The position numbers and the translations under genes were made by a program. A stretch of DNA of 64,000 nucleotides, from IMG/VR virus record IMGVR_UViG_3300042473_001002; one strand, given 5' to 3'. This document shows positions 11,627 through 48,685 of the stretch, piece after piece (position 1 is the first letter of the stretch; every line of letters begins with the position of its first letter). The notes below the pieces were generated by a model. The model was not told where the DNA came from. It did not search any database and saw nothing but the letters and a program-made list of their open reading frames with translations. Source of the DNA: a virus (taxonomy: Duplodnaviria; Heunggongvirae; Uroviricota; Caudoviricetes; Crassvirales).

Positions 11627-11725
11627 ATTAACTAAATTAAAAATTATGAAAAAAATAGAAATTGGAGATAACATATTTTGGTCTATATTTTGGATATGTG
11701 TCACATTAATAATAATATATGGATA

Positions 11726-12757
11726 ATGACAATAGATTTAAATGCTAAAAAAAGACTTCTTACTAAACAAGATATATTACAAAAGTTTAATGAATTAGAA
11801 ATATTTCAAAAATATATTAACGAACCTATAACAATTGGTGGTAAACCAATATTATCTCCTATTAGAAAAGAAAGTAATCCATCATTTGGATTTTTTATGG
11901 GAGAAGGTAATGAGATATGTTTTAATGATTTTAAATTAGGTAAAGGAGATTTTATACAATTTCTCAGACTTAAATTTGGACTTACATATTTTGAAGCTTT
12001 AAGTAAAGTTGCTTGTGATTTTGATATGCAAAATGATTTTATATGTAAAATATTTGATAAAACTAATACTAAAGATACTAAAGTTTCTAATATTACTAAA
12101 AATGAATTACTTGCTAAATATACAGGTTATAAATTAGGTAAAAATAAAAGAGAATGGAAAGAGCATGATACTTTATATTGGAGACAATTTGGAATATCTT
12201 TAGAAACTTTAAAGTTTTTTAATGTTGAAGCAATTAGTTTTATTCATATTGGAGATAGTATATATCCAGCTGATAAATATGCATATTGTTTTAAAGAATT
12301 AAAAGATAATGTTGAAACATATAAAATTTACCAACCTTATAATGAAAAATTTAAATGGATTAATAATCACGATAATTCTGTATGGCAAGGTTGGACACAA
12401 TTACCTGCATCTGGAAATAACTTAGTAATTACTAAATCTTTAAAAGATGTAATGTGTTTATATGAATTAGGTTTTACAGCAGTATCTTTACAATCTGAAA
12501 ATTTATTTCCTAAAAGACATGTATTTAAACAATTAGAAGATAGATTTAAATTTATTGAAATATTATATGATAATGATTATGATTCTGAAACTAATTGGGG
12601 TAAATTATTTGGTGATAAATTAGCTACAGAATTAGGATTAAGTCCATCTTATATTCCAGATAAATATCAATCAAAAGATCCGTCAGATCTAGTTGCTAAA
12701 TATGGTAAAGTTAAAGCTGAAGAAATAATATCTAAAGAAACATTATTACCATTTTAA
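11726..12757 (+). CDS. primase-like protein with a TOPRIM-like C-terminal region
   Basis: The track start at 11678 is a TTG codon. An ATG at 11726 overlaps the TAA of a 26 aa upstream small ORF (TAATG), and a third possible ATG lies at 11696. The TOPRIM-like segment is LVITKSLKDVMCLYELGF…ILYDNDYDSE (DxD), and no zinc finger is seen. Confidence 0.35.
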   Translation: MTIDLNAKKRLLTKQDILQKFNELEIFQKYINEPITIGGKPILSPIRKESNPSFGFFMGEGNEICFNDFKLGKGDFIQFLRLKFGLTYFEALSKVACDFDMQNDFICKIFDKTNTKDTKVSNITKNELLAKYTGYKLGKNKREWKEHDTLYWRQFGISLETLKFFNVEAISFIHIGDSIYPADKYAYCFKELKDNVETYKIYQPYNEKFKWINNHDNSVWQGWTQLPASGNNLVITKSLKDVMCLYELGFTAVSLQSENLFPKRHVFKQLEDRFKFIEILYDNDYDSETNWGKLFGDKLATELGLSPSYIPDKYQSKDPSDLVAKYGKVKAEEIISKETLLPF

Positions 12758-12769
12758 AATAAATAAAAT

Positions 12770-13375
12770 ATGGGTAGAAGTAAAAGAAGTAAAAATAAAT
12801 ATTCAGCTAAGAAAAAAGAACAAAAACTTCAACATAAATTAATGTTAAGTCTTAAAAAAAAAGTTAATAGAAAAATGGAAAAAAGATATTTAGTAGGAAT
12901 CTACGATAGTTTTAGAAAAGGTGGAATTTATCATAATAAAATTAATACTGCAAATTCTAAATTAATAGGTTCTTATAGCACACAACCTATTTATAATATG
13001 TATGATGTAGGTGTAGATGATGTTATAATTGTTAAAGATGGTAATCATTCTATTAAAATTGAAGTTTGGGAAATATCTGAAAAAGTATTAGCTATTCTTG
13101 AAAAAGAATATAATTATTATCCAGAATTAGAACAAGGTCAAAATTTATATTTGAAAGAAACCGTTTCTTCACCATTTGGAGATATATTATTATATACTTA
13201 CAATGATACATATGATGCAACAGATATGATTGTATTAGGTGATTGGATAGAACATTTAAATATATTAAAAGCTAAAAGAATTATAACAACTCCTACAACT
13301 AACTATATGAGAAATGGTTATAATAAAATAATGAACAGTAGTGAATTTGCAATAGATAAAGAATTTATGGATTAA
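12770..13375 (+). CDS. GGCT/AIG2-like (γ-glutamyl cyclotransferase fold) protein with a basic N-terminal tail
   Basis: A Lys/Arg-rich N-terminal tail (MGRSKRSKNKYSAKKKEQK…) is followed by YLVGIYDSFRKGGIYHN…IKIEVWEISEKVLAILEKEY. This is paralogous to 13875..14288. Confidence 0.5.
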   Translation: MGRSKRSKNKYSAKKKEQKLQHKLMLSLKKKVNRKMEKRYLVGIYDSFRKGGIYHNKINTANSKLIGSYSTQPIYNMYDVGVDDVIIVKDGNHSIKIEVWEISEKVLAILEKEYNYYPELEQGQNLYLKETVSSPFGDILLYTYNDTYDATDMIVLGDWIEHLNILKAKRIITTPTTNYMRNGYNKIMNSSEFAIDKEFMD

Positions 13376-13387
13376 TAAAATAAAATT

Positions 13388-13873
13388 ATGAAAACATTAG
13401 AAGTTTTAGATAAATATAAAAAAATAATTTCAGGAATTCTTAATTGTAAATCTGAAGAAATTAAATTTTATACAAATAATAACAATGAAGAAATTGGAAC
13501 TATTGATTTTGATAAAAATGAAATTTCAAAAAATTGGGAGTTAGGTTGCTATAAAGTAATTCAACAAGTTGAAAATGAACAAATATTAATTTCAGATTGG
13601 AAATTATATCAATTACAACATTGTTGTGCTTTTATGGTATCTTGTAATGTTAGAGTTAAAGATGAATATAGAAATAAAAGAATTGGAACAATATTAAATC
13701 AATGTCGTCAAGATATTGGTAGATTATTAGGATATTCTGCAATTTTATGTACAGATATTGAACAAAATCAAAATCAAAGAAAATTATTAAAAACAAATGG
13801 TTGGAAAGATATATTCTCAGTTGTAAATAAAAGAACTAATAATAGAGTATATTTAACAGTTGTAAATATTTAA
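13388..13873 (+). CDS. hypothetical protein (possibly GNAT-like; weak)
   Basis: A 161 aa ORF. KRIGTILNQ resembles GNAT motif A only loosely. Confidence 0.4.
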   Translation: MKTLEVLDKYKKIISGILNCKSEEIKFYTNNNNEEIGTIDFDKNEISKNWELGCYKVIQQVENEQILISDWKLYQLQHCCAFMVSCNVRVKDEYRNKRIGTILNQCRQDIGRLLGYSAILCTDIEQNQNQRKLLKTNGWKDIFSVVNKRTNNRVYLTVVNI

Positions 13874-13874
13874 A

Positions 13875-14288
13875 ATGAGTAAAAATAAAATATTAGTTGC
13901 ATGCTATGGTAGCTTACGAAAAGGATTGGGAAATCATCATTATTTAGAAAATGCTAAATATTTAGGAAATTTTAATACAGAACCAATTTATAACTTACAT
14001 TCTTTAGGTAGTTATCCAGGTTTAAAAGAAAATGGAAATACTTCTGTAGTAATGGAAGTATATGAAGTTACTCCAATAGAAGCTCACAGTATAGATAGAT
14101 TAGAAGGTTATACACCAGGTTCTAATAGTAATACTTTTTATGATAAAAAAGATATAAATACACCTTGGGGAGTAGCTTCAGTTTACTTATATGTAAGTGA
14201 ATTACCTAAATCAACTATTGTAAAAAGTGGTGATTGGAAAGAATTTAAAAATAATACATCGAATTATTATTCAATAAGAAACAATTAA
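13875..14288 (+). CDS. γ-glutamyl cyclotransferase (GGCT/AIG2-like) family protein
   Basis: ILVACYGSLRKGLGNHHYL (the YGSLxxG motif) and …VVMEVYEVTPIEAHSIDRLEGY (a GGCT-type catalytic Glu context). Confidence 0.65.
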   Translation: MSKNKILVACYGSLRKGLGNHHYLENAKYLGNFNTEPIYNLHSLGSYPGLKENGNTSVVMEVYEVTPIEAHSIDRLEGYTPGSNSNTFYDKKDINTPWGVASVYLYVSELPKSTIVKSGDWKEFKNNTSNYYSIRNN

Positions 14289-14302
14289 AAAATAAATAAA
14301 AA

Positions 14303-14998
14303 ATGGCAAAAAAGAAAATAGGAATTGTTGGACATTTCACAGGTCAAAATAGTTTTGGAATTAGTAAACCATATATGGATTTCTTTAGACACTTTGGAAC
14401 AGTTTCATTAATTACACCTTGGGAAGAAGATGTTAGAGATTTAGATTTATTAGTATTACCTGGTGGTCCAGATGTTAATCCTTTAAGATATTTAGAACCA
14501 GATGATGAATTAAGTATTTATGTAGGAGCACCGTGCCCATTTAAAGAAAGATTTGATAGACATTTGTTGCCTCAATATATTGAAGCACAAACTCCAATAT
14601 TTGGAATTTGCAGAGGACATCAATCATTAGCTGTTCATTTTGGTGCTAAATTAGTTCAAGATATGTATCATGAAACTAACCCAGATCATGATGGAGTTAA
14701 AACAATGCATACAGTTATTGCACCAGATTTTATTACAGAAATGATTCCTACTATGCATGATTTCAATAAATTAGAATTTGATGTTAATAGTAGACATCAT
14801 CAAGTAGTTATGAATTGTCCAGCAAATGCTACAATAATTGGAGAATATAATGGTAAATATAAAGAATTAAATGAACCTGGATGTATTGAAGCATTATCAT
14901 ATTTTCCAAATTATCCAGCTCATACAGTACAATGGCACCCTGAAGATAAAAGAGATTTATTTAGTGTCAGATTAATCCAACATTTATTAGATTTATAA
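14303..14998 (+). CDS. class I glutamine amidotransferase-like / peptidase C26 (γ-glutamyl hydrolase-type)
   Basis: LLVLPGGPDVNP, a catalytic-Cys motif FGICRGHQSL, and the C26-type His motif DVNSRHHQVV. Confidence 0.7.
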   Translation: MAKKKIGIVGHFTGQNSFGISKPYMDFFRHFGTVSLITPWEEDVRDLDLLVLPGGPDVNPLRYLEPDDELSIYVGAPCPFKERFDRHLLPQYIEAQTPIFGICRGHQSLAVHFGAKLVQDMYHETNPDHDGVKTMHTVIAPDFITEMIPTMHDFNKLEFDVNSRHHQVVMNCPANATIIGEYNGKYKELNEPGCIEALSYFPNYPAHTVQWHPEDKRDLFSVRLIQHLLDL

Positions 14999-15930
14999 TG
15001 ATAAAACAAGTTAAAAAAGTTAAAAATCCTACTTTATTTAGACCAATGATTTATAGTAGACATCCAAGTCATAATGTATTAAGGTCTAATACTAAGAATA
15101 TTAGATTATTACCATATCGTTCAGTTATAAGGTTTGGCTCAACTACTGAATGTCCTGATACAGTTGCTAAAGGAGGTAATAGAATTGAAATTAATACGAT
15201 AGAAGCTGTTAAAAATTCAGCTTCTAAATTATTAATGAAACAAAAGTTTACTGAAGCTCAAGTTAGTACTGCAGATTGGTTTTGTCCTATCAATAAAAAT
15301 GCTGAAGATTATTTTGAAAGTTATAATAAAGATGAAAATAATAATTTTTATCTAACTGTTAATGGTATAGGAAATATTGAAAGACTATATTATCCTATTG
15401 TTGCTAAAGCACATTTTGGTTCTAAAGGTAAAGGTAATACTTTAATTAAAACTAAAGAAGACTTAGATTCTTGGGTTGTTGGTAAAAATTTATCTCATTA
15501 TATTTTTGAGAAATTTGTGAATTATGGTCATGAATTTAGATTACATGTTACAGAAGATGGTTGTTTTTATGCTTGTAGAAAAGCTTTAAAATCAGGTGTT
15601 CCAGATTCTGAAAAATGGAGAAGACATGATGATATTTGTATTTGGTTTTTAGAAACTTCACCAGAATTTTATAAACCTAATAGTTGGAATAACATTGAAG
15701 AAGATTGTATTAAGGCTTTAAAAGCTATTGGTGCAGATATATTATCTTTTGATGTTAAAGTTCAAACACCTACAGACGCTAAAGGTAATCTTAGAGGTTA
15801 TCAAGAGTTTATTTTAATAGAATGTAACTCAGCATCATCAATGGATAATGGTACAGGAAATATTTCTGTATGTGCTCAAAAATATATTGAAGAATTACCT
15901 AAAATTATAACAAGAAAAGCTACAAAATAA
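14998..15930 (+). CDS. ATP-grasp family ligase
   Basis: YPIVAKAHFGSKGKGNTLIK (ATP-binding Lys and Gly loop), IFEKFVNYGHEFRLHV, and FILIECNSASSMDNG (the E-x-N motif). Confidence 0.55.
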   Translation: MIKQVKKVKNPTLFRPMIYSRHPSHNVLRSNTKNIRLLPYRSVIRFGSTTECPDTVAKGGNRIEINTIEAVKNSASKLLMKQKFTEAQVSTADWFCPINKNAEDYFESYNKDENNNFYLTVNGIGNIERLYYPIVAKAHFGSKGKGNTLIKTKEDLDSWVVGKNLSHYIFEKFVNYGHEFRLHVTEDGCFYACRKALKSGVPDSEKWRRHDDICIWFLETSPEFYKPNSWNNIEEDCIKALKAIGADILSFDVKVQTPTDAKGNLRGYQEFILIECNSASSMDNGTGNISVCAQKYIEELPKIITRKATK

Positions 15931-16433
15931 TGGAAAGAATTAGTCCTATTACTGGGAATCCTGTTAGAAAATATACTAGAAAATCTGTTCCAGTTGAAAT
16001 TGCAGAAGTTGTTGAAAAAAAAGTACAAGTAGAAAAAAAAGAAGAATATGATGGTATTCTTAAAAAAGAAGATTTTATATTTTATAAAGATGTTTCTAGT
16101 ATAAGTGATTATGATTTTAAAATGGCTGTTATTAAAAGAAGTACGTATTCATTTTCTACTTTATATTTTAGTTATGGACCTACTGTTAATTGTCAAATGA
16201 TGACAGTTGGAGCTTTTGGACCTTTTTTACAAGTTGAGACTAAAATACTAGAACAACTTAAAGCTATAAAAGATAATTTTAAAAAAAATATACTTTTAGT
16301 AGATATAAGACACGAATATATGAAATATTTTAATGGAAAAATACCAAAAGATATGATTATAATGATTTCTCCATATGTATCAACAAATGGTAGTAAAATG
16401 AATATATGTTTAATTAATATGACAAAATTATAA
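15930..16433 (+). CDS. hypothetical protein
   Basis: A 167 aa ORF, start/stop-coupled (ATAATGG) within the cluster. Confidence 0.45.
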   Translation: MERISPITGNPVRKYTRKSVPVEIAEVVEKKVQVEKKEEYDGILKKEDFIFYKDVSSISDYDFKMAVIKRSTYSFSTLYFSYGPTVNCQMMTVGAFGPFLQVETKILEQLKAIKDNFKKNILLVDIRHEYMKYFNGKIPKDMIIMISPYVSTNGSKMNICLINMTKL

Positions 16434-16435
16434 AA

Positions 16436-17614
16436 ATGAAAGAAGAATTAGAAGAATGGTTAAATAAAACAATTGAAATATATCCTGAAATTACTAGAGA
16501 AAAAATGGATAGTTTATTAAATAGAGATATGTCTAGTCGTTTATATAGTGAAATTCCTTCAAATAGTATTATTAATGGACATCAACAAAAAATTGATTAT
16601 ATGATGAATACGTTAAAAGAATTAAAACAACCTAAAGAAAAATCTAAATTAAATTTAGTAATTGCAGATGGTAGTAGTTCTATGGAATATGTAGAATATT
16701 TATCAACAGAATTTGATGTTAATGTTGTTAATATTAAAAATGTTAAACGTAAAAAAGATATTGATTTAGTATTATTTACAGGAGGAGAAGATGTTGATCC
16801 AGAATTATATGGAGAAAAAGTTGGTAAACATACATATATTAATAAAACTCGTGATAAAAAAGAAAGAGAGTGTTTTAATTTCTTTAAAGGTTACGTACCA
16901 ATGCTTGGTATATGTAGAGGAAATCAACTATTATGTGTTCTTAATGGTGGTAAATTAATTCAACATGTTGAAGGTCATGGTAGAGAACATACTATGATAA
17001 TTGATGGAAATTCTAGACCTGTACCAATTACTTCAACACATCATCAAATGGTATATCCTTTTAATTTAAAAAATGATAAATATAAATTAGTTGCTTATTC
17101 TGAATTTTATAAAAGTAAAACATATTTAAATGGTGATAATAAAGAAATTGAATTAAGTAAAGATTTTTTAGAACCTGAAATTGTATATTATCCAAATACT
17201 AAGTGTTTAGGTATTCAAGGGCATCCTGAATATGGAAGCTGTGATGATAGTACTAAAAAACTTTGTATGAGGTTAATTAAAAAGTATTTATTTAGTGATA
17301 ATGAATCTAAAAAATCTGAATCATATAAATGGGAAGATAATTATGATTATATAGAAACTGAAGAACCAGCTATTGGTAGTTATGTACATAAAACCATACC
17401 TTCAAATTATAAAAATTTTTACCATGATAGCTTTAAAAGTGGGATAGATGCTATTCCAAGTTTAGATTCAGATAGTAATCTTGATAAAAAACTTAATGCT
17501 TTTTCTAAAGAATATATTGATAAAGTGTTTATTGATCCTAGTGTATATTATAGTAACACACCTTCAGAATTTCAAACTAAAACTATTCCTGTAAATAAAG
17601 AATTTAAAGATTAA
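16436..17614 (+). CDS. class I glutamine amidotransferase-like / peptidase C26 paralogue with N- and C-terminal extensions
   Basis: LVLFTGGEDVDP, GICRGNQLL and ITSTHHQMVYP…GIQGHPE. It is 392 aa, with about 110 aa of extra N-terminal and about 100 aa of extra C-terminal sequence. Confidence 0.65.
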   Translation: MKEELEEWLNKTIEIYPEITREKMDSLLNRDMSSRLYSEIPSNSIINGHQQKIDYMMNTLKELKQPKEKSKLNLVIADGSSSMEYVEYLSTEFDVNVVNIKNVKRKKDIDLVLFTGGEDVDPELYGEKVGKHTYINKTRDKKERECFNFFKGYVPMLGICRGNQLLCVLNGGKLIQHVEGHGREHTMIIDGNSRPVPITSTHHQMVYPFNLKNDKYKLVAYSEFYKSKTYLNGDNKEIELSKDFLEPEIVYYPNTKCLGIQGHPEYGSCDDSTKKLCMRLIKKYLFSDNESKKSESYKWEDNYDYIETEEPAIGSYVHKTIPSNYKNFYHDSFKSGIDAIPSLDSDSNLDKKLNAFSKEYIDKVFIDPSVYYSNTPSEFQTKTIPVNKEFKD

Positions 17615-17628
17615 TAAAAAGTATAAAA

Positions 17629-18441
17629 ATGACAAAAATAAAAAATATTACAATTGGTACAGATCCAGAAATGTTTCTTAAAAAAGATGGTGTTATAATT
17701 TCAGCAATTGGTAAAATAGGAGGGTCTAAACATGATCCTCTTCCAATCTCTGATAATGGACATTTTATTCAAGAAGATAATGTTGCAATTGAATACAATA
17801 TTCCAGCTTGTACAACTAAAGAAGAATTTATTTACCATAATAATTTTGTAAAAGATTATTTAGATACAGTTGTTACAGCTATAGGTTGTGAATTAGATTT
17901 CTCAGCATCTGCAATTTTATCTGATGAAGAATTAGATTCTGATCAAGCTAGATTAGCTGGTTGTGAACCTGATTTTGATGTATGGAGACAAGATGTTAAT
18001 ATAGCTCCAGATTTAAGTGCTAGTAATATGAGAGTGTGTGGTGGTCATATTAGTATTGGTTGGGATAATCCAACAGAATCTTCACAAGAAGATATGGTTA
18101 AAGCTATGGATGCAACCTTAGGTTTAAAATCATTATTTTTAGATTCTGATACAGAACGTAAAAAATTATATGGTAAAGCAGGTTGTTTTAGATTTCGTGA
18201 TTATGGAATTGAATACAGAACTTTATCTAATTTTTGGATTAAAACTAATGAATCTTTAGCTTGGGCTTTTGATACAACAATGGAAGCTATTGAATTAGTT
18301 AATTCTGGTAAAATAGATTTGATTAAAGAAAAATACGCAGACAAAATTGTTGAAGCAATTAATACAAATAATAAATCATTAGCTCAGGAATTATTAAATG
18401 AATTTTCACTTATTAATTCAGAAAAACTAGAATTAGTATAA
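17629..18441 (+). CDS. putative carboxylate-amine ligase (GCS2/YbdK-like), truncated form
   Basis: ITIGTDPEMFL (compare GvEeEf), AIEYNIPACTTKEEF (compare vEi.TP.c…ea), and GCFRFRDYGIEYRT (compare R…lE.R). It is short, at 270 aa. Confidence 0.4.
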   Translation: MTKIKNITIGTDPEMFLKKDGVIISAIGKIGGSKHDPLPISDNGHFIQEDNVAIEYNIPACTTKEEFIYHNNFVKDYLDTVVTAIGCELDFSASAILSDEELDSDQARLAGCEPDFDVWRQDVNIAPDLSASNMRVCGGHISIGWDNPTESSQEDMVKAMDATLGLKSLFLDSDTERKKLYGKAGCFRFRDYGIEYRTLSNFWIKTNESLAWAFDTTMEAIELVNSGKIDLIKEKYADKIVEAINTNNKSLAQELLNEFSLINSEKLELV

Positions 18442-18462
18442 AATAATTAAAAAAAAATAAAA

Positions 18463-20448
18463 ATGGCAATAAAAATAATTCTAATATTAGCATTATTACA
18501 ATATATATATTACTTTATATTTAAACCTAAATTAAATATTTTATCTTGTGGAATTTTTGGTCAAGCTACAAATACACCAGTGAAATTAGATGTATCTTCT
18601 GTTAATATTCTTGGAATATATAATATAGAAAGAGGTAAACAATCTTGTGGTTTAACTTGGGATGGAGATATTCAACATGGCATTGATAAAGATAAACTTT
18701 ATAGTGACTTTATTAAAAATAGAAATATTAAACCAAAATATTTTCCAACTATGTTTGGACACACTAGACAATCTAGTTATGGAAATATTGTTAATTTAGA
18801 TAACGCACATCCTTTTGGATATGGTATCAGTGCTGATAAAAATAGTTATGAGTTTATATTTGTTCATAACGGAACATTAAAAAATTCTAAAGAATTAGCA
18901 GCTAAATATAATATTGATACAATTGTAAAGTATCAAAAAAAAATGCATAATAGTGAAAATACATATGAAACAACTAGAACTAAAATTGACTCAGAAATTC
19001 TAGGTGAAATATTATGGCAAGAAAAATCTTATCATGTATTGAGTGAATATGTAGGTACAGCTGCTTGTGCTTGGATGTGGTGTAATGAACCTAATAAATT
19101 ATATTTATGGTCAGGTGCTTCTAAATTACATATAGATGATACAGATGGTAAAATATTTGAAGAAAGACCTTTGTGTGTTTATAATAAAAGTAAAAATAAT
19201 ATGTTTTTTTCATCATTAGAAGATAGTTTAACTACTATTGGTGGTGTTTTAAACAATAATATTGAACAAATTGCTGTAAATACAGTACATATAATTACTA
19301 ACGGTGACTATAAAAATTGTGAAAAAATTCTTTCTACTAGAAAAAATGCTTGTCAAGATGATAGTTATAAAGCACCCAGGCACAATCATTACGGAGGAAA
19401 TCATAGAACTCAAAACTATTATGATACCATACTTAATGATGGTATTGATTATAGTAATCCTAGTTCTGCTTATTGTAATGTAAAAAATGTAACAGGTATG
19501 GATATAACAGAAGATATTCCATTACATAATATAAACAATTATTTAGGTAAAGTTTATTCAAAAGGTCTTAGATATTGGAAAAACGGACATGTAATTAATG
19601 GTATATATATGTATATTCTTGGTTATGGTTTTAAAAGACTTGGTGATAGTTATGTTGAAGCTTATGCTGAAATTGAAAAAAATCGTGGTAAAGTATTTTC
19701 AACAGGAGGAGATTTTTCTTATACTATAACAGAAGGTCAAATTCCAATTCAAAAAGAATCTAAAATACAATTACATTATTTTATTGATGGTGCAATGTTA
19801 AAAACTCATTCTGATTATATTAAATGTCAAGAAATGAAAAAAAATATGACATCTGGAACTAAATATATAGGAGTTGTAGAATTATCAAGTATGTCTAAAC
19901 ATCCAGTAGCAACCATGTTAACATCTAAAAAACCTCCAGTTTATCTTGACGGTGGTTATTATACAGGAAATTGTGTAGAATTAGGTTTTGAAAAAGTTTA
20001 TTATTTTGATAATGGTAAATTTATGAAATGTAGTAGAAGATTAGATTTAACTGAAGAAAAACCAGTTATTCAATTACCTATAAATTTTAAAAAAGAAGAA
20101 CCTCAAATTGTACATAATCCACAAATTTTAAATCAGGCTGTTAATAATATTAGAAATTATGAAAAAGAATGGGAAGATGATCTTAAAAAAGAAACTTTAA
20201 ATAAAATCATTGAAACTCATTTTGAAACAGAAATTGATGAAGAACTAAATGAAGAAGATGTTGATGAATTTATTACGGATTTTGTTAGTGAAAGTTTTAT
20301 ATCATTAATAGAAGATATTGAATCTAAAATGAAAGATTTAAAAGATTACAAAGAAAATTCAATTGCAAAAGATGCGATTAGAACTTTTGATATGATTTTA
20401 AATGTTTGTAATCAATATATTACAGAACCAAGAAAAGAAAAAGAATAA
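18463..20448 (+). CDS. class II (Ntn) glutamine amidotransferase domain fused to a large uncharacterised C-terminal region
   Basis: LSCGIFGQ…HTRQSSYGNIVNLDNAHPFG follows a 29 aa hydrophobic leader that could be an autoprocessed propeptide. No PP-loop (SGGxDS) is present, and an acidic tail follows. Confidence 0.6.
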   Translation: MAIKIILILALLQYIYYFIFKPKLNILSCGIFGQATNTPVKLDVSSVNILGIYNIERGKQSCGLTWDGDIQHGIDKDKLYSDFIKNRNIKPKYFPTMFGHTRQSSYGNIVNLDNAHPFGYGISADKNSYEFIFVHNGTLKNSKELAAKYNIDTIVKYQKKMHNSENTYETTRTKIDSEILGEILWQEKSYHVLSEYVGTAACAWMWCNEPNKLYLWSGASKLHIDDTDGKIFEERPLCVYNKSKNNMFFSSLEDSLTTIGGVLNNNIEQIAVNTVHIITNGDYKNCEKILSTRKNACQDDSYKAPRHNHYGGNHRTQNYYDTILNDGIDYSNPSSAYCNVKNVTGMDITEDIPLHNINNYLGKVYSKGLRYWKNGHVINGIYMYILGYGFKRLGDSYVEAYAEIEKNRGKVFSTGGDFSYTITEGQIPIQKESKIQLHYFIDGAMLKTHSDYIKCQEMKKNMTSGTKYIGVVELSSMSKHPVATMLTSKKPPVYLDGGYYTGNCVELGFEKVYYFDNGKFMKCSRRLDLTEEKPVIQLPINFKKEEPQIVHNPQILNQAVNNIRNYEKEWEDDLKKETLNKIIETHFETEIDEELNEEDVDEFITDFVSESFISLIEDIESKMKDLKDYKENSIAKDAIRTFDMILNVCNQYITEPRKEKE

Positions 20449-22178
20449 TGAGTAAAGAAAAAGTAGTTATAACAGTTAAAGATGAAAGTTTACCTATATC
20501 TAAATGTAGACAATTTGATAAAAAATGGTATAAAATAGGTGATGTTAAAATAGAAAATTCTGGTGATTGTTATTTTATTAAAAATAGATATTATCGAGAA
20601 GAAACTGGTAGTGTTGTATTTAATTACAGTATCAATGAATATGTTTTAAAAGATGATAGTGTAATTAAAGGAATTATTAATATTGATGAAAACAACATTG
20701 TTAAATTTGGTTATTTTAACTATGATAAAAAACATGCTGTTATTAAATTAGAAAATGGTAGTAAATGTAATATATTAAATGAAGAATGTCTTTTAAATAA
20801 TAAATTATATCGTGAAATTTTATCTACTGGTGAATATTCACATATTAGTTTAATTCCAGCTAAGAAATTTAATAGTATGTTAATTCCAAAACAAGAATAT
20901 AAACATAGTTTACCTTATGACTCAAAGGGAATTACAAATCAATTTTTAAGTTTATATAATAATAATTACAATCCCAAAATATTTGAAAATGTTTCTTTAT
21001 ATTCTAAAGTATTAGGAAATTTAACATTTGGATTAGAGTTTGAAACGACTAAAGGTTTTATTCCTGAGAGAATTATTAATAATTATGGTTTGATTCCTTT
21101 AAGGGATGGTAGTATTAGTGGTATTGAATATGTTACAGTTCCTTTACAAAGTGAAAAAGGGTTACAATATGTAATTGATATTTCTAAAATATTAGAACAT
21201 AGGACTGTTTATGATAAAACTTGTTCTTTACATCAACATATTGGAAATATACCTAGAACTAAAGAATTTATTTTATCTTTCTTTAAAGTAACATGTGCTA
21301 TTCAAAATGAAATTTTTGAAATGTTTCCATTATTTAAAAAATATAATTTTAGAGTTAAAAATAAAAATTATAGTAAACCTTATCCTATTTATAATTTGTT
21401 AAGTCAAATGGATAGTGTAATTAATACTAATAATATTGATGAAAACTTTAATATATTATATAAATATTTATCTAGTGGACAAGAATTTAAAGATGTTGGA
21501 AGTGATTTAGATAATGTAACCATTCATCCAAGTGATCCAAATGGTAATCAAAAATGGTTGATAAAAAATAGATATTATATTCATAATATGATCCCTCTTA
21601 TTTTTGGTAATAAACAAACTATTGAATTTAGAATTCATACTCCTACATATGATGTAAATAAAATAGTTCCTTTTATGTTTATAAATAGTATTTTAATTAA
21701 TTATACTATTCAAAATCAAAATGAAATATTAGGAACTCGTGGTTTTTTATGTAATAAAAATTTATCAAATATTATTACAGAGTATCTAAATAATTTTAAA
21801 TTTAATGATGGTGGTAATTTACATGCTTCTTTATTACATTATATTGATAGTAGAAAAAAAGATACTGAATCACAAAATATTAATGGTGATATTGTTGGTG
21901 ATGAAACTAAAATTAGATCTTGTAATTTTGTAAATTGGACTAAAGAAGTTAATGAAAAACAAGAATATTTATATATGGATAAAAAATCTATTTATAAACA
22001 TATTGATGGTTTTGTGTCAGATCCGTATGAAGTAGAAATAGAACGAATATTAGACCATATGGTTAAAGGAAGAATGTCTGTTTCTACAGGTAATTCTAAA
22101 ATAAGTTTTTACAGAAAAGAACAGAAAGATTATAGAAATAAAAATAATTTATCTCCAATTTTAACATATGAAGAATAA
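20448..22178 (+). CDS. hypothetical protein (576 aa), cluster-associated
   Basis: The ATGA start overlaps the previous stop, and no known motif was recognised. Confidence 0.5.
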   Translation: MSKEKVVITVKDESLPISKCRQFDKKWYKIGDVKIENSGDCYFIKNRYYREETGSVVFNYSINEYVLKDDSVIKGIINIDENNIVKFGYFNYDKKHAVIKLENGSKCNILNEECLLNNKLYREILSTGEYSHISLIPAKKFNSMLIPKQEYKHSLPYDSKGITNQFLSLYNNNYNPKIFENVSLYSKVLGNLTFGLEFETTKGFIPERIINNYGLIPLRDGSISGIEYVTVPLQSEKGLQYVIDISKILEHRTVYDKTCSLHQHIGNIPRTKEFILSFFKVTCAIQNEIFEMFPLFKKYNFRVKNKNYSKPYPIYNLLSQMDSVINTNNIDENFNILYKYLSSGQEFKDVGSDLDNVTIHPSDPNGNQKWLIKNRYYIHNMIPLIFGNKQTIEFRIHTPTYDVNKIVPFMFINSILINYTIQNQNEILGTRGFLCNKNLSNIITEYLNNFKFNDGGNLHASLLHYIDSRKKDTESQNINGDIVGDETKIRSCNFVNWTKEVNEKQEYLYMDKKSIYKHIDGFVSDPYEVEIERILDHMVKGRMSVSTGNSKISFYRKEQKDYRNKNNLSPILTYEE

Positions 22179-22888
22179 TGGTACTAGTACATAAAGAAAG
22201 TTTAACAAATCGTCGTATTAGTATAAACTGGCAAAAAGATATAGGGGATTGGGTAGATCCTCTATATTCTTTGCTAGAATCTGACTATATTGATGATTTA
22301 GTAACTTTTATTCAACAGAAATATTTACAATCTGAACATGTTTATCCTAAAAAAAGTAGATTATTTAAACCCTTTCAATATTGTAAATATGATGAACTAA
22401 AAGTTGTAATGATTTCAAACAATGCTCCTATTAGTGAATATGCTTCAGGTTTTGGATTTGGTATTAATAGTTTTGATGAAAAAGCACTTTTACCAAACTT
22501 ATTAGAAAGTCTTAAAATATTAATTAAAGAAAGTTTATATCCTAGTATTAAAGGAACTATATTTTTTGATAGTACATTACAAGATTATGCTGAACAAGGT
22601 GTTTTATTTTTAAATACATCTTTAACAGTAGAAGCAAATGAAAGTCATAGTGATATTTGGAGAAACTTTGTTAGACAAGTTATTAAAACAATTAGTAAAG
22701 AAAAAGATAATATTATATTTGTATTTTTAAATGGTGAAAATGAACTATTTGAAAAATACATTGACGTTAATAAACATTATATTTTAAGAAATGCAGGATC
22801 TACTTTACCTCATTATAGTAATATAATTAGTAAAATAGAAGATATAATATTATGTAAATACGGTTCAAGAGAACATATACAATGGTAA
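22178..22888 (+). CDS. hypothetical protein (236 aa)
   Basis: Start/stop-coupled within the cluster. Confidence 0.5.
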   Translation: MVLVHKESLTNRRISINWQKDIGDWVDPLYSLLESDYIDDLVTFIQQKYLQSEHVYPKKSRLFKPFQYCKYDELKVVMISNNAPISEYASGFGFGINSFDEKALLPNLLESLKILIKESLYPSIKGTIFFDSTLQDYAEQGVLFLNTSLTVEANESHSDIWRNFVRQVIKTISKEKDNIIFVFLNGENELFEKYIDVNKHYILRNAGSTLPHYSNIISKIEDIILCKYGSREHIQW

Positions 22889-23365: not shown

Positions 23366-23665
23366 ATGAAAAAAGAACTGTTACAAAAAATTAGTGAATT
23401 ATGTTATTTTGTTTTAGATGATAAAGAATGTAAAAAATTTTTATTATATCTTATTAAAGATGATGTTAATTCTGCAAGATTATATTTAGATAAAGTGATT
23501 GAAAATATTGAATTTCAATTTGCATTTGAATCAGAAGATGAGGAATTAAAACGTCAATTAAAACATTCTAACACACTAATGGATTTAGTAATAGAACTGA
23601 CAATAGTGAATGATAGAGACAACGAAGAAGGAAAGCAAGTTAGAGAAATTACTTCAGGACAATGA
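23366..23665 (+). CDS. hypothetical protein
   Basis: A 99 aa ORF whose 3' end overlaps the HNH gene start by 56 nt. Confidence 0.4.
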   Translation: MKKELLQKISELCYFVLDDKECKKFLLYLIKDDVNSARLYLDKVIENIEFQFAFESEDEELKRQLKHSNTLMDLVIELTIVNDRDNEEGKQVREITSGQ

Positions 23666-24191
23666 AGAAATTATTTGGAAAGATATTCCAGATTATAAAG
23701 GTTATTATCAAGTAAATAACTTAGGTAATATAAGAAGTATAAAACGTGAAATTATTACTGAAAAAGGTGTTAAACAAATTAGAAAAGAAGTTTTACTAAA
23801 ATCAAGATTAGGAAATAAAGGTTATTTATATGTAATATTATGTAAATTAGGTATTACTAAAACTATAACAGTACATCAATTAGTAGCAATTGTATTTTTA
23901 GATTATAAACCAGACGGTACTACAAAAATAGTAGTAGATCACATAGATAATAATCCATTAAATAACAAATTAGAAAATTTACAAGTAATCACACAATATC
24001 AAAATCGTATAAAAGATATGAAAGGGTTTTCAAGTAATTTTCCAGGTGTTTGTTGGAGTAAATTTCATAATAAATGGAGAGTTAGAGTTCAATATAACAA
24101 TATTAGAAGAAGTATTGGTTATTTTGATAATGAACAAGATGCTATAGATGCTTGTAAAAATGAACTAATAAAATTAAATAGATATGAGTAA
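23610..24191 (+). CDS. HNH homing endonuclease with NUMOD4-like N-terminus and AP2 DNA-binding domain (mobile element)
   Basis: IWKDIPDYKGYYQVNNLGNIRS (NUMOD4-like), VDHIDNNPLNNKLENLQ (HNH), and FPGVCWSKFHNKWRVRVQYNNIRRSIGYFDNEQDA (AP2). Confidence 0.65.
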   Translation: MIETTKKESKLEKLLQDNEEIIWKDIPDYKGYYQVNNLGNIRSIKREIITEKGVKQIRKEVLLKSRLGNKGYLYVILCKLGITKTITVHQLVAIVFLDYKPDGTTKIVVDHIDNNPLNNKLENLQVITQYQNRIKDMKGFSSNFPGVCWSKFHNKWRVRVQYNNIRRSIGYFDNEQDAIDACKNELIKLNRYE

Positions 24192-31596: not shown

Positions 31597-32262
31597 ATGA
31601 TGGGAATTTACAAGATTACAAATCCTAATGGAAAAATATACATTGGTCAAACAACAAACTGGTTAAAAAGATATAATAATTATAAAAAATATAATTGTAA
31701 ATATCAAACAAAATTATATAATTCTTTAAAATTTTATAAATTTGAAAATCATATATTTGAAGTTATTGAAGAATGTGAAGAGTCAGAATTAAATATTAAA
31801 GAAAGATATTATCAAGATCTATATAATTCATCTAATAAACAACATTTAAATTGTAGATTAACTTCTACAGATGATAAATCAGGTAAATTAAGTGAAGAAA
31901 CTAAATTAAAATTGTCTAAATCAAGAAAAGGTAAATATTGTGGTGTAGATAATCATATGTTTGGTAAATTTGGTGAAAAGCATCAATGGTTTGGTAAAAA
32001 ACACACAGAAAATGCAAAATTAAATATTTCTGAAAAACAAAAAGGAAATTTAAATCATATGTATGATAAAAAATATGATTTAAATCCTAATTCAAAAAAA
32101 GTTATTAATGTTGAAACTGATGAAATTATAAATTCAATTAAAGAATTATCGGAAATTTTACAAATTAAATATTCTTATTTAAGAAGTATGATTTCTGGTA
32201 ATTGTAAAAATAAAACAAAATATATATATTATGAAGAAGATAAATATAAAGATGAAATATAA
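31597..32262 (+). CDS. GIY-YIG homing endonuclease with NUMOD3-like repeats (mobile element)
   Basis: GIYKITNPNGKIYIGQTTNWLKRY, plus the repeated helix-turn-helix-like motifs KLSEETKLKLSKSRKGK and HTENAKLNISEKQKG. Confidence 0.75.
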   Translation: MMGIYKITNPNGKIYIGQTTNWLKRYNNYKKYNCKYQTKLYNSLKFYKFENHIFEVIEECEESELNIKERYYQDLYNSSNKQHLNCRLTSTDDKSGKLSEETKLKLSKSRKGKYCGVDNHMFGKFGEKHQWFGKKHTENAKLNISEKQKGNLNHMYDKKYDLNPNSKKVINVETDEIINSIKELSEILQIKYSYLRSMISGNCKNKTKYIYYEEDKYKDEI

Positions 32263-33076: not shown

Positions 33077-33284
33077 ATATATTTATGATTATAAAGAAGT
33101 AAAATCTGGTAGAACTGCTAAATGGTGTAGTTGTTGCAGTAAAACAATTAAACCTGGTGAATCAAGCATAACTATAACTTATTATAATTCTGAATTTTTT
33201 ACTAATTCAGTATGCTCTAAAAAGTGTAAAGACAAGTATTACGAAAATTTTAATAGTGACGAAGAGGAGGAAGAAGATGAGTAA
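33069..33284 (+). CDS. small zinc-ribbon protein with an acidic tail
   Basis: CSCCSK…CSKKCKDKYY and a C-terminal DEEEEEDE. Confidence 0.4.
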   Translation: MSKYIYDYKEVKSGRTAKWCSCCSKTIKPGESSITITYYNSEFFTNSVCSKKCKDKYYENFNSDEEEEEDE

Positions 33285-34386
33285 AATAGATAAAACATAT
33301 CATCAGTTGTTACAAAAAATAATGACTGATGGTTATACATATGAAGATCCTAATAGAAAAGGAGTTAATAGACTTGAAATACCAAGTTATACATTTAGAC
33401 ATGAATTTAAAGATGGATTTCCTGCAATAACCACAAAAAAACTTCATTACAAAAATGTTGTAACAGAGTTAATATGGTTTTTACGTGGTGATACAAATAT
33501 TAAATATCTTGTAGATAATGGTTGTAATATTTGGAATAAAGATGCTTATAATTATTTTAAAAAACATGTACCTTCAAAATTTGTATCATTTGAAAAATAC
33601 ATTAAATTAATTAAAGAAGATAAATTACAATCACTTCTTAGGTTTAAATTAGGTAATTTAGGTCCTGTTTATGGAAAACAATGGCGTGATTTTAATGGTG
33701 TAGATCAAATTAAAGATTTAATTCAGGGATTAAAAGATAAACCTTTAAGTACTGAACATATTGTTACAGCTTGGAACCCTGGAGAAAAGTTTAAAATGGC
33801 TTTACCAGCATGTCATTATGGGTTTCAAATAGTTGTAAGACCTTTAAAATATGATTTTGAAGAAATGTCAGAAGAATGTGAAAAACATTTTAACAAAGAA
33901 TATCATAAATATTCAGATGGAAATTCTAGTTCTGAAGATTTTTGGAATCAAGGATGGTATAAATATGCACATAAAACTTATCCACAATATGGATTTGAAC
34001 TTCATTGGACACAGCGCAGCTCAGATTCATTTTTAGGAATTCCTTACAATATAGCTTCATACGCTACATTAGCGTTGATTTTAGAGAAGATAACTGGTTA
34101 TAAAGCATTAGCTATAGAATCACCTTTAAAAAAAGTTCATTTGTACGACAATAGTTTAAATGCTGTTAAAGAACAATTAAGTAGAAATGTTGATAAATAT
34201 GATAAATGTGAATTAAATTTAGAATATTTAAAAGAACATATGTTTGATATTTATCCTGCGTGGGAAACTAAAGGAGGTTTAAATATTGATAAATTTATAA
34301 ATTTGTTAAAATTTGAAGATTTTAAATTAGAAGGATATAAATCATATCCAGCTATTAATGTAAAAATGTTAGAAAGAGATGAATAA
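33277..34386 (+). CDS. thyA: thymidylate synthase (ThyA family, dUMP-binding) with an internal insertion of about 50 aa
   Basis: ELIWFLRGDTN, GPVYGKQWR, MALPACHYGFQ (catalytic Cys), and QRSSDSFLGIPYNIASY (Asn retained, so uracil-specific). The track start at 33256 is GTG. ATG 33277 (MSKIDKTYHQ) overlaps the upstream stop. Confidence 0.75.
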   Translation: MSKIDKTYHQLLQKIMTDGYTYEDPNRKGVNRLEIPSYTFRHEFKDGFPAITTKKLHYKNVVTELIWFLRGDTNIKYLVDNGCNIWNKDAYNYFKKHVPSKFVSFEKYIKLIKEDKLQSLLRFKLGNLGPVYGKQWRDFNGVDQIKDLIQGLKDKPLSTEHIVTAWNPGEKFKMALPACHYGFQIVVRPLKYDFEEMSEECEKHFNKEYHKYSDGNSSSEDFWNQGWYKYAHKTYPQYGFELHWTQRSSDSFLGIPYNIASYATLALILEKITGYKALAIESPLKKVHLYDNSLNAVKEQLSRNVDKYDKCELNLEYLKEHMFDIYPAWETKGGLNIDKFINLLKFEDFKLEGYKSYPAINVKMLERDE

Positions 34387-41630: not shown

Positions 41631-41639
41631 ATTTTTTTA

Positions 41640-48683: not shown

Positions 48684-48685
48684 AA

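Follow-up and report, generated by a model that had tools for sequence, protein, structure and literature searches.

A lineage-expanded copy of the widespread phiEco32/LUZ24-type amidoligase cassette in a crAss-like phage

Positions 12770-22178 of the DNA analysed here, a 64,000-nucleotide (nt) stretch of IMG/VR virus record IMGVR_UViG_3300042473_001002 (hereafter the window), carry the amidoligase cassette of the phiEco32/LUZ24 type, widespread in phages, in a form expanded in the lineage of this phage. The original prediction for this stretch had described enzymes for the formation or cleavage of amide and gamma-glutamyl bonds, a description supported by the family assignments reported below. 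As to function, we propose, with a probability of about one half, that the cassette builds a glutamate-containing amide compound step by step at the expense of ATP, with a gamma-glutamyl intermediate, the product being a small molecule. The phiEco32/LUZ24-type cassette was reportedly predicted by Iyer, Abhiman, Burroughs and Aravind in Mol Biosyst in 2009. The statement that phage operons of such composition had been foreseen by comparative genomics is borne out by passages of PMC10580990 and PMC11706807, which cite Iyer et al. 2009; the 2009 suggestions repeated in these genome papers are cell-wall modification, superinfection exclusion and secondary metabolites. In a passage of PMC10945688, a role of the cassette genes in nitrogen metabolism is proposed from correlative data.

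The open reading frames (ORFs) of the locus are the following (GGCT, gamma-glutamyl cyclotransferase; GATase, glutamine amidotransferase; Ntn, N-terminal nucleophile; UDG, uracil-DNA glycosylase; aa, amino acids):

ORF1 (GGCT-a), 12770..13375, + strand: divergent AIG2/GGACT-like paralog, lineage-specific, with a Lys/Arg-rich N-terminal tail
ORF2, 13388..13873, + strand: GNAT-fold-like small protein of 161 aa, accessory
ORF3 (GGCT-b), 13875..14288, + strand: canonical cassette gamma-glutamyl(amine) cyclotransferase-like protein
ORF4 (C26-a), 14303..14998, + strand: class-I GATase / peptidase C26 paralog, lineage-specific
ORF5 (AG), 14998..15930, + strand: RimK-like ATP-grasp ligase, core
ORF6, 15930..16433, + strand: 167-aa protein with an unnamed ~100-aa domain, accessory
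ORF7 (C26-b), 16436..17614, + strand: cassette-type class-I GATase / peptidase C26, immediately upstream of LIG2
ORF8 (LIG2), 17629..18441, + strand: phiEco32-like COOH-NH2 ligase type 2 of the GS/GCS superfamily, core, seed gene of the searches
ORF9 (GnAT), 18463..20448, + strand: class-II (Ntn) glutamine amidotransferase-like protein, core
ORF10 (AML), 20448..22178, + strand: divergent Amidoligase_2, GS-like ligase of 576 aa, core
ORF11, 22178..22888, + strand: UNG-family (UDG) homolog of 236 aa, crAss replication module

The eleven consecutive + strand genes first described at 12770-22888 are all present there and are closely spaced, with junctions of -7 to +21 nt, four of which are 1-nt overlaps of the ATGA type. 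No terminator-like site was found between the genes at 12770-22888, the sole one in the cluster being located inside ORF7; a sigma-70 promoter scan gave the counts expected from shuffled sequence in the AT-rich window DNA (G+C ~24%) and was uninformative. The cassette proper consists of the ten genes at 12770-22178, and ORF11 is outside it. Profile searches supported all seven enzyme-family assignments that had been made from motifs, ORF1 being borderline and ORF5 falling below the Pfam cutoff. The motifs quoted in the original prediction were all found in window proteins, with the qualification that the GGCT string (YGSL...LEGY) fits ORF3 only. Among the four proteins listed as unknowns (161, 167, 576 and 236 aa), three can now be named (ORF2, ORF10 and ORF11), whereas the ORF6 domain is still unnamed. 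Active-site residues are conserved in the ligases, in the two thiol amidases, in the Ntn domain and in GGCT-b (63-110 homologs per family).

The cluster contains three ligases rather than the two (ATP-grasp and GCS2) initially counted, ORF10 being the addition. ORF8 matches PF14395 (COOH-NH2_lig) with 32.3 bits against a cutoff of 25 and phrog_3815 with an E-value of 1.8e-74, and its residues E14, E55, H140, E195 and R197 (metal-/phosphate-binding Glu, His and Arg) are invariant in 110/110 proteins. It had been described as a YbdK/GCS2-like ligase: the assignment to the carboxylate-amine ligases of this superfamily stands, but the family is PF14395 and not PF04107 (GCS2/YbdK), which gave no match, Pfam at E <= 0.1 returning PF14395 alone. 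ORF8 shares the GCS2/YbdK superfamily but belongs to a different family; it has no NCBIfam or PDB sequence match. ORF10 itself matches PF12224 (Amidoligase_2) with an E-value of only 0.064; it matches phrog_2443 at 2.5e-28, and 34/35 of its BLAST cluster mates match PF12224. Its residues G195, E197, E199, D220, S222, E227, H262, H264, Y376, E393 and R395 are invariant, so that the pattern G-x-E-x-E, D-x-S, E, H-x-H, E-x-R is retained. For ORF5, the predicted ATP-grasp assignment is weak in Pfam (6.5e-4, below cutoff) and in the NCBIfam model rimK_fam (2.4e-5, below cutoff) and is supported by phrog_2599 (1.8e-20); K77, E179, R181, K195, D252 and E275 are invariant in 95/95 proteins. No useful sequence-related solved structure was found for ORF5, ORF8, ORF9 or ORF10.

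The identification of ORF9 as a class-II Ntn amidotransferase is supported both by profile (GATase_6, E 1.5e-7) and by fold. An AlphaFold2 model built from a 63-sequence alignment (pLDDT, the predicted local distance difference test score, 84.8) retrieved in Foldseek the glutaminase domain of GlmS as the best match (3e-11), followed by ASNS, PurF and EgtC. The protein is organised as a hydrophobic leader/N-terminal helix (residues 1-28), the Ntn domain (29-295), a disordered linker, a beta-rich domain (~345-530) and three long helices (553-654). C29, G30, R102, N136, G137 and D176 are invariant in the 63 homologs, and R102, N136, G137 and D176 map onto what we take to be the glutamine site of GlmS. 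The C-terminal part, modelled alone (pLDDT 82), gave no significant PDB fold match, and no SIS, phosphoribosyltransferase (PRTase) or PP-loop domain was matched in it by Pfam or by fold; ORF9 is therefore not a GlmS, PurF or AsnB. The interpretation as ordinary purine or asparagine biosynthesis genes, which the original prediction had weighed as an alternative, is rejected on the same ground. The cysteine of the SCGIFG motif is residue 29, not residue 2, and no start codon is adjacent to it. The preceding segment (18463-18546) is a conserved hydrophobic leader of 27-28 aa, found in 44/63 homologs and in g040 of Cellulophaga phage phi14:2, with the consensus M[IV]KIILILALLQY..NF.FGYKSNILS directly before the nucleophile Cys. 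The other start is represented by 18/63 homologs that begin Met-Cys, including the closest IMG/VR relative (L010; ATG-TGT), whose ORF9 is 74% identical. By its sequence, the leader looks like a membrane-anchor-type propeptide that would need cleavage for enzyme activation.

Both class-I GATase/peptidase C26 genes of the original prediction were recovered with Pfam, with their triads present. ORF4 matches Peptidase_C26 with an E-value of 2.5e-24 and carries the triad Cys103, His212, Glu214, and ORF7 matches at 2.4e-17 (phrog_7218, 2.5e-42) and carries Cys160, His263, Glu265; in a set of 77 proteins the C26 triad is conserved in at least 99%. ORF7 has extensions at both its N- and C-terminus and is orthologous to the C26 proteins of other cassettes (E 1e-42 to 1e-20), while the ORF4 paralog type was found only in the window's family. 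The NCBIfam PuuD-type and gamma-glutamyl-CDP-amidate hydrolase models gave weak matches to ORF4 and ORF7, far below their cutoffs. We also observed that in two related contigs (L014:6405-8171 and L020:5361-6989) C26-a is interrupted precisely at its catalytic motif (...PIFGI / CRGHQ...), and that the insert, of ~0.9-1.0 kb and with an HNH-like endonuclease ORF on the opposite strand, looks like a mobile intron at the active-site codon.

The claim of two GGCT/AIG2-like genes holds clearly for one of them. ORF3 matches Pfam GGACT (PF06094) with an E-value of 2.5e-17 (64 bits) and phrog_2520 at 1.2e-24; it contains the YGSLRKG motif and the Glu of EVYEV (E61), Y11 and E61 being invariant in 63/63 proteins, and the GGCT proteins of other cassettes are its orthologs. 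The GGACT score of ORF1, 23.3 bits, barely exceeds the cutoff of 22.8, and its motifs are altered: YDSF replaces YGSL (YD[SD][FY] in the family, with Gly changed to Asp) and LEGY is gone, the Glu of EVWEV being retained. This paralog type is restricted to the window's own phage family. At its N-terminus (12770-12890), ORF1 has a Lys/Arg-rich tail of ~40 aa, conserved across the lineage, which suggests nucleic-acid binding or packaging into the virion.

The distribution of the cassette was examined from ORF8. A tblastn search found a homolog in 310 GenBank phage records, and loci were fetched from IMG/VR (80) and from species genomes (29); the gene counts that follow use 111 non-redundant loci, seeded on ORF8 only. 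AML was found in 102/111 loci, GnAT in 102/111, ATP-grasp in 94/111, C26 in 64/111 and GGCT in 51/111, many of the missing genes corresponding to contig ends. AML and GnAT are adjacent, in either order, in 92/100 loci, and C26 lies directly upstream of LIG2 in 33/64. The commonest layouts are LIG2-x-AML-GnAT-AG-GGCT (24 loci) and C26-LIG2-x-AML-GnAT-AG (21 loci), where x is a protein described below; in GGCT-type cassettes the adjacency seen most often (24 loci) is ATP-grasp followed by GGCT. Since the same genes co-occur in ~100 independent phage loci, their clustering is far beyond chance. Co-conservation is thereby established, and the possibility that these are scattered morons is rejected. 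All 29 ORF8 matches in the species-genome collection are contigs of metagenome-assembled genomes, the longer ones phage-like in length, and neither a bacterial chromosomal home for LIG2 nor a biosynthetic cluster of known product was found in that collection. Annotated cassettes are present in Leptolyngbya phage Lbo-JY46, Pseudomonas phage p2-10_Or1 (Bruynoghevirus) and Escherichia phage EP335 (Gordonclarkvirinae), and the carriers are annotated for Pseudomonas, E. coli, Vibrio, cyanobacteria and Flavobacteriia. UFV-P2 likewise has the cassette gene set according to a passage of PMC3890496, and amidoligase and GATase genes are reported in virus(es) assigned to archaea in a passage of PMC11706807.

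To compare the cleaving enzymes among cassettes, we used the 52 loci with a complete core and flanks of 2.5 kb or more on both sides. C26 alone was found in 18/52, GGCT alone in 16/52, both in 15/52 (10 of these from the window's own family) and neither in 3/52. An extra stand-alone Ntn hydrolase beginning Met-Cys is present in all 3 loci without C26 or GGCT, and in several others. C26, GGCT and this second Ntn hydrolase are three unrelated folds whose sole common property is gamma-glutamyl amide cleavage, and because they mostly replace each other we interpret the pattern as non-orthologous displacement of one required gamma-glutamyl removal step. The pattern points to an obligatory removal step and argues against an ammonia-donating role of the core-type C26 (ORF7), which may act as a gamma-glutamyl hydrolase. 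The original prediction had proposed synthesis and 'trimming' of an adduct; synthesis is retained here, and the interchange of GGCT and C26 speaks for the removal of a gamma-glutamyl group more than for trimming in general.

At least 12 IMG/VR contigs share the window's gene order, the full-length ones measuring 93-103 kb and their ORF8 being 63-90% identical. The order in this lineage is AAA_24-u187-primase-GGCT-a-GGCT-b-C26-a-AG-(ORF6)-C26-b-LIG2-GnAT-AML-UDG-like-RusA-like-exonuclease, the ORF6-domain gene being present in some members only. The duplication of GGCT and C26 is therefore a stable trait of a whole ~100-kb crAss-like lineage and not a one-off, and the lineage additions to the cassette are GGCT-a (ORF1), C26-a (ORF4), the GNAT-like protein (ORF2) and the ORF6-domain protein. 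The arrangement had also been called unusual, which is true in degree only: the core is already annotated in phi14:2, in LUZ24-like Pseudomonas phages and in EP335. In phi14:2, a cultured member of the Crassvirales (Steigviridae, Asinivirinae), g037-g041 form a five-gene cassette, GGCT-AG-LIG2-GnAT-AML, in which GnAT has the leader and the C-terminal domain of ORF9 and g041 is 35% identical to ORF10. Where the window has two GGCT genes, phi14:2 has a single one, and it is devoid of C26, GNAT-like and ORF6-domain genes. In cr108_1, a crAss-like phage of the human gut, the order is AG-two unknown genes-C26-LIG2-GnAT-AML-UDG, with one C26 and without GGCT. The LIG2-GnAT-AML order is common to the three phages, as is the slot: Sak4-like ATPase, primase, cassette, UDG, RusA, exonuclease and ribonucleotide reductase (RNR).

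The accessory proteins were assigned mainly through their homologs. ORF2 itself matches Acetyltransf_1 weakly (E 0.03); it has 81 homologs, on phage-sized contigs, and 16 of the 35 tested match Acetyltransf_1 (best 3.4e-6), so that we regard ORF2 as GNAT-like on the strength of its family. In 7 other loci, proteins related to it (hhalign probability 68%, E 5e-5) are encoded between ATP-grasp and LIG2. ORF6 has 8 close homologs, and its profile retrieves 618 representative proteins with a common domain of ~100 aa, characterised by the motifs PT.NCQ / D / Y.STNGS.M, in which N-C-Q, D and Y-x-S are invariant; even with a 55-sequence profile the domain gave no Pfam or PDB match. Most of the contexts examined for this domain are within or near amidoligase cassettes: it occupies the slot ATP-grasp - ORF6 domain - C26 in L119-L122, followed by LIG2 on contigs long enough to include it, and is close to cassettes in L001, L096, L124 and L125. 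At L001:5429-6934 and L123:8001-8486, ORF6-like genes adjoin genes resembling NAD salvage (PRPP-synthetase-like and NAPRTase-like). A general link between the cassette and NAD salvage was considered and rejected, such genes flanking the cassette in 1/118 loci. The protein x of the commonest layouts (~190-230 aa; e.g., L002:7806-8384 and L003:8904-9431) is present in ~51 loci, in 46 of them between LIG2 and AML, and has no Pfam or NCBIfam match. Neither hidden Markov model searches nor profile-profile comparison found x in the window, and it is also absent from phi14:2 and cr108_1, the crAss-type cassettes lacking it; x is therefore not universal in cassettes, and may either belong to the core as its fifth component or serve as substrate or carrier.

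ORF11 had been counted as a cluster member. The NCBIfam uracil-DNA glycosylase model matches it at 9e-29, with 100.8 bits where the cutoff is 162; ORF11 lies where phi14:2 and cr108_1 have their annotated UDG genes, and co-occurs with crAss-type loci and replication genes only; we therefore assign it to the replication module instead. Compared with what we take to be the E. coli UNG sequence, its catalytic residues are lost, GQDPY becoming SNNAP (Asp) and the His of HPSP being replaced in NAGSTL. The same losses occur in L010, L012 and L019; phi14:2 is intermediate (GKEPY) and cr108_1 keeps GQDPY and HPA. By these substitutions, ORF11 is probably not an active uracil-DNA glycosylase and would be a pseudo-enzyme or a repurposed base-binding protein.

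The crAss-like identity of the window phage is given by its tail-ring protein (PF24228, E 1e-57) and by its DNA polymerase, whose nearest relatives are from crAss-like phages; no near-identical DNA was found in GenBank phages. Upstream, the cassette is flanked by a DnaG-type primase (11678-12757; phrog_12622, 1e-56) and, downstream, by genes for a RusA-like resolvase, an HNH endonuclease, an exonuclease, the small and large RNR subunits, a helicase and the thymidylate synthase ThyA. The cassette is co-directional and packed with these replication and nucleotide-metabolism genes, from the primase to the UDG homolog, and is probably co-expressed with them. Two genes of this module, an HNH gene with NUMOD4 (23610-24191) and a GIY-YIG gene with NUMOD3 (31597-32262), are free-standing homing-endonuclease genes; contig L005 is devoid of the HNH gene, which is therefore mobile. 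The thymidylate synthase (33256-34386, 376 aa) has an internal insertion of ~50 aa and matches its profile in two stretches; with 220 bits against a TIGR03284 equivalog cutoff of 108, it scores as a normal enzyme. The minus strand is occupied by giant ORFs, a third mark of a crAss-like phage: at 34959-54895, three successive ones of 2223, 2347 and 2069 aa are followed by one of 1376 aa, an array typical of crAss-like virion or RNA-polymerase-type proteins.

We propose the following scheme for the cassette. The three ATP-dependent ligases would act one after another on a substrate centred on glutamate or glutamine, each making an amide bond, and the Ntn protein would work with its neighbour, the Amidoligase_2, either delivering glutamine-derived nitrogen to an acyl-phosphate intermediate or hydrolysing a gamma-glutamyl amide as EgtC does. 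A gamma-glutamyl group may be attached as a transient carrier or protecting group and later taken off, either hydrolytically (C26 or the second Ntn hydrolase) or, by GGCT, through cyclisation to 5-oxoproline. The most likely product would be a metabolite, a small amide or peptide derived from glutamate and made in the course of infection, and not a DNA tag or a tag on a single protein. The targets offered in the original prediction (glutathione, folate, a virion tag, a nucleobase adduct) are guesses. Two observations favour such a product. Because carriers span many hosts, and amidoligase and GATase genes are reported from viruses of archaea, a universal substrate of the small-molecule type is favoured over a host-specific protein or peptidoglycan; and no universal non-enzyme partner is conserved, no conserved candidate substrate protein having been found among the loci, where x (absent here) is the only extra conserved protein.

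Several points weigh against this scheme. A full-text search of the literature found only genome-description papers, and these define no product for the cassette, as the original prediction had stated. The parts that would determine the substrate (the C-terminal domain of ORF9, the ends of ORF10, ORF6 and x) match nothing characterised. The position of C26 upstream of LIG2 would equally fit a glutaminase subunit feeding LIG2, and the RimK-like ATP-grasp and the basic tail of ORF1 would suit a protein or nucleic-acid target too. As the nucleophile Cys of ORF9 follows a 28-aa leader, its activity would need self-processing, which is known for other Ntn enzymes. Finally, the parallels with butirosin, putrescine (Puu) and ergothioneine metabolism that may be drawn for the cassette are similarities of enzyme pairing and not homology-based.

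Among the other explanations, a tagging role, in which a host or phage protein receives glutamate or a short peptide as in RimK polyglutamylation or pupylation-like systems and the GGCT, C26 and Ntn enzymes prepare or remove the tag, is unlikely, though rated above the other rivals. GGACT-type enzymes act on gamma-glutamyl-epsilon-lysine, ORF5 is RimK-like (phrog_2599, rimK_fam), and x, conserved in ~51 loci, could be the carrier or target; a passage of PMC4431377, from the same comparative-genomics group, holds that phage-borne peptide ligases (R2K ATP-grasp families) may modify host proteins. However, x is missing from the window, phi14:2 and cr108_1 and has no conserved non-enzyme substitute, the small proteins inspected (ORF1, ORF2, ORF6 and the L002 x) have no acidic LysW-like C-terminal tail, and with so wide a range of hosts a single target protein becomes less likely, save for a universal one. 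We regard as improbable a purely catabolic or salvage function, in which host gamma-glutamyl compounds (glutathione, polyamine conjugates, folate polyglutamates) would be degraded or recycled for amino acids or nitrogen: three conserved ATP-consuming ligases are hard to justify for degradation, and no conserved amine-utilisation oxidoreductases or transaminases accompany them, even though hydrolysis or cleavage is what GGCT, C26 and Ntn enzymes all do and pairs of a GS-like ligase with C26 serve amine catabolism, as in the Puu pathway. The nitrogen-metabolism effects attributed to these genes in a passage of PMC10945688 would agree with salvage, but the evidence given there is correlative.

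The genomic setting raises another explanation: a nucleobase, a nucleotide or phage DNA would carry an amino-acid or amide adduct built by the cassette, a new hypermodification that would protect the DNA from host nucleases. In every lineage examined in detail the cassette sits in the replication/nucleotide module (primase, UDG, RNR or primase/helicase adjoining), although placement in an early/middle module is common for any auxiliary gene. The conserved basic tail of ORF1 is as in nucleic-acid-binding proteins, the adjoining UDG homolog has no catalytic Asp and His in the window lineage, and the C26 proteins have a weak, sub-threshold likeness to gamma-glutamyl-CDP-amidate hydrolase, a nucleotide-linked gamma-glutamyl amidase. 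Against this, a scan of 39 window ORFs, which covered part of the small ORFs and none of the giant minus-strand ones, found no dUMP/dCMP hydroxymethylase, base kinase (5-HMUDK-type), aGPT-Pplase or DpdA/TGT; ThyA scores as a normal thymidylate synthase; and modified DNA in cassette phages is absent from the papers found, full-text searches for hypermodification and DNA modification having come back empty. The odds are thus poor, and they are just as long for the elaborated version, in which the basic-tailed GGCT-a would trim a glutamate-derived amide adduct on nucleotides or DNA, the dead UDG homolog would bind or shield the base, and the Ntn enzyme would stay latent behind a membrane-anchoring propeptide. 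Very improbable, finally, is the 2009 suggestion, relayed for phiEco32 in passages of PMC10580990 and PMC11706807, that the ligases and amidotransferase alter peptidoglycan or another surface polymer so that other phages are blocked (superinfection exclusion). The conserved hydrophobic, membrane-anchor-like leader of the ORF9 family would be in keeping with it, and stem-peptide chemistry involves gamma-D-Glu, amidation and the ATP-grasp ligase Ddl; yet 18/63 ORF9 homologs and most cassettes of other lineages start Met-Cys, without the leader; the cassette has no conserved partner of the Mur-ligase, flippase or glycosyltransferase kind; lytic podophages have little to win by remodelling the envelope late; and PMC11706807 reports amidoligase and GATase genes in a virus assigned to archaea, which have no peptidoglycan.

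The window is not unique, nor does it show by itself what the cassette makes. What the comparison defines is a four-gene core (LIG2, AML, GnAT and ATP-grasp), an Ntn enzyme tied to Amidoligase_2, and the interchange of three unrelated gamma-glutamyl-cleaving enzymes, which implies an obligatory removal step. The five- to ten-gene set occurs in LUZ24-like Pseudomonas phages, which are under study as therapy candidates, in E. coli phages such as EP335, in marine and freshwater phages and in crAss-like phages of the sea and the human gut. Cultured carriers are identified (phi14:2, LUZ24-like phages and EP335), and the window lineage has the richest version, whose extra paralogs may reveal how the substrate is handled. 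Whether a metabolite, a protein tag or a DNA adduct, the product would be new phage biochemistry; if it were a DNA or nucleotide adduct, ~100-kb crAss-like phages, including human-gut relatives, would carry an unrecognised DNA chemistry.

Known systems resemble the cassette to different extents. GlmS, PurF and AsnB have in common with ORF9 the Ntn glutaminase fold and the glutamine-site residues, but ORF9 is without their SIS, PRTase or PP-loop synthase domain and has a 27-28-aa hydrophobic leader before the Cys. In butirosin biosynthesis, BtrJ (ATP-grasp) and BtrG (AIG2-like GGCT) respectively add a gamma-glutamyl protecting group and remove it by cyclisation; this ATP-grasp/GGCT pairing would be alike in logic only, the cassette having no carrier-protein or aminoglycoside genes. 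PuuA (GS-like) is paired with PuuD (C26) in putrescine catabolism, and EgtA (GCS) with EgtC (Ntn) in ergothioneine biosynthesis, so that a GS/GCS-superfamily ligase stands beside a C26 or class-II Ntn amidohydrolase in each, as in the cassette; however, the phage ligases belong to PF14395 and PF12224, and the cassette lacks the oxidase, methyltransferase and sulfoxide synthase partners. The closest system is the phiEco32/LUZ24-type cassette (PF14395/PF12224 context). The window differs from it in its order (LIG2-GnAT-AML, not LIG2-x-AML-GnAT, and without x), in four extra genes, and in a GnAT with a hydrophobic leader and a different, larger C-terminal region. Apart from the missing x, the window has its distinguishing features, namely PF14395, Amidoligase_2, an adjacent GnAT, ATP-grasp and GGCT/C26; the same four core families are present with GGCT and/or C26 and, as in the window, the genes are co-directional and packed in an early/replication module beside a primase or primase/helicase. 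The window is thus an expanded variant of a cassette that is already annotated in public records.

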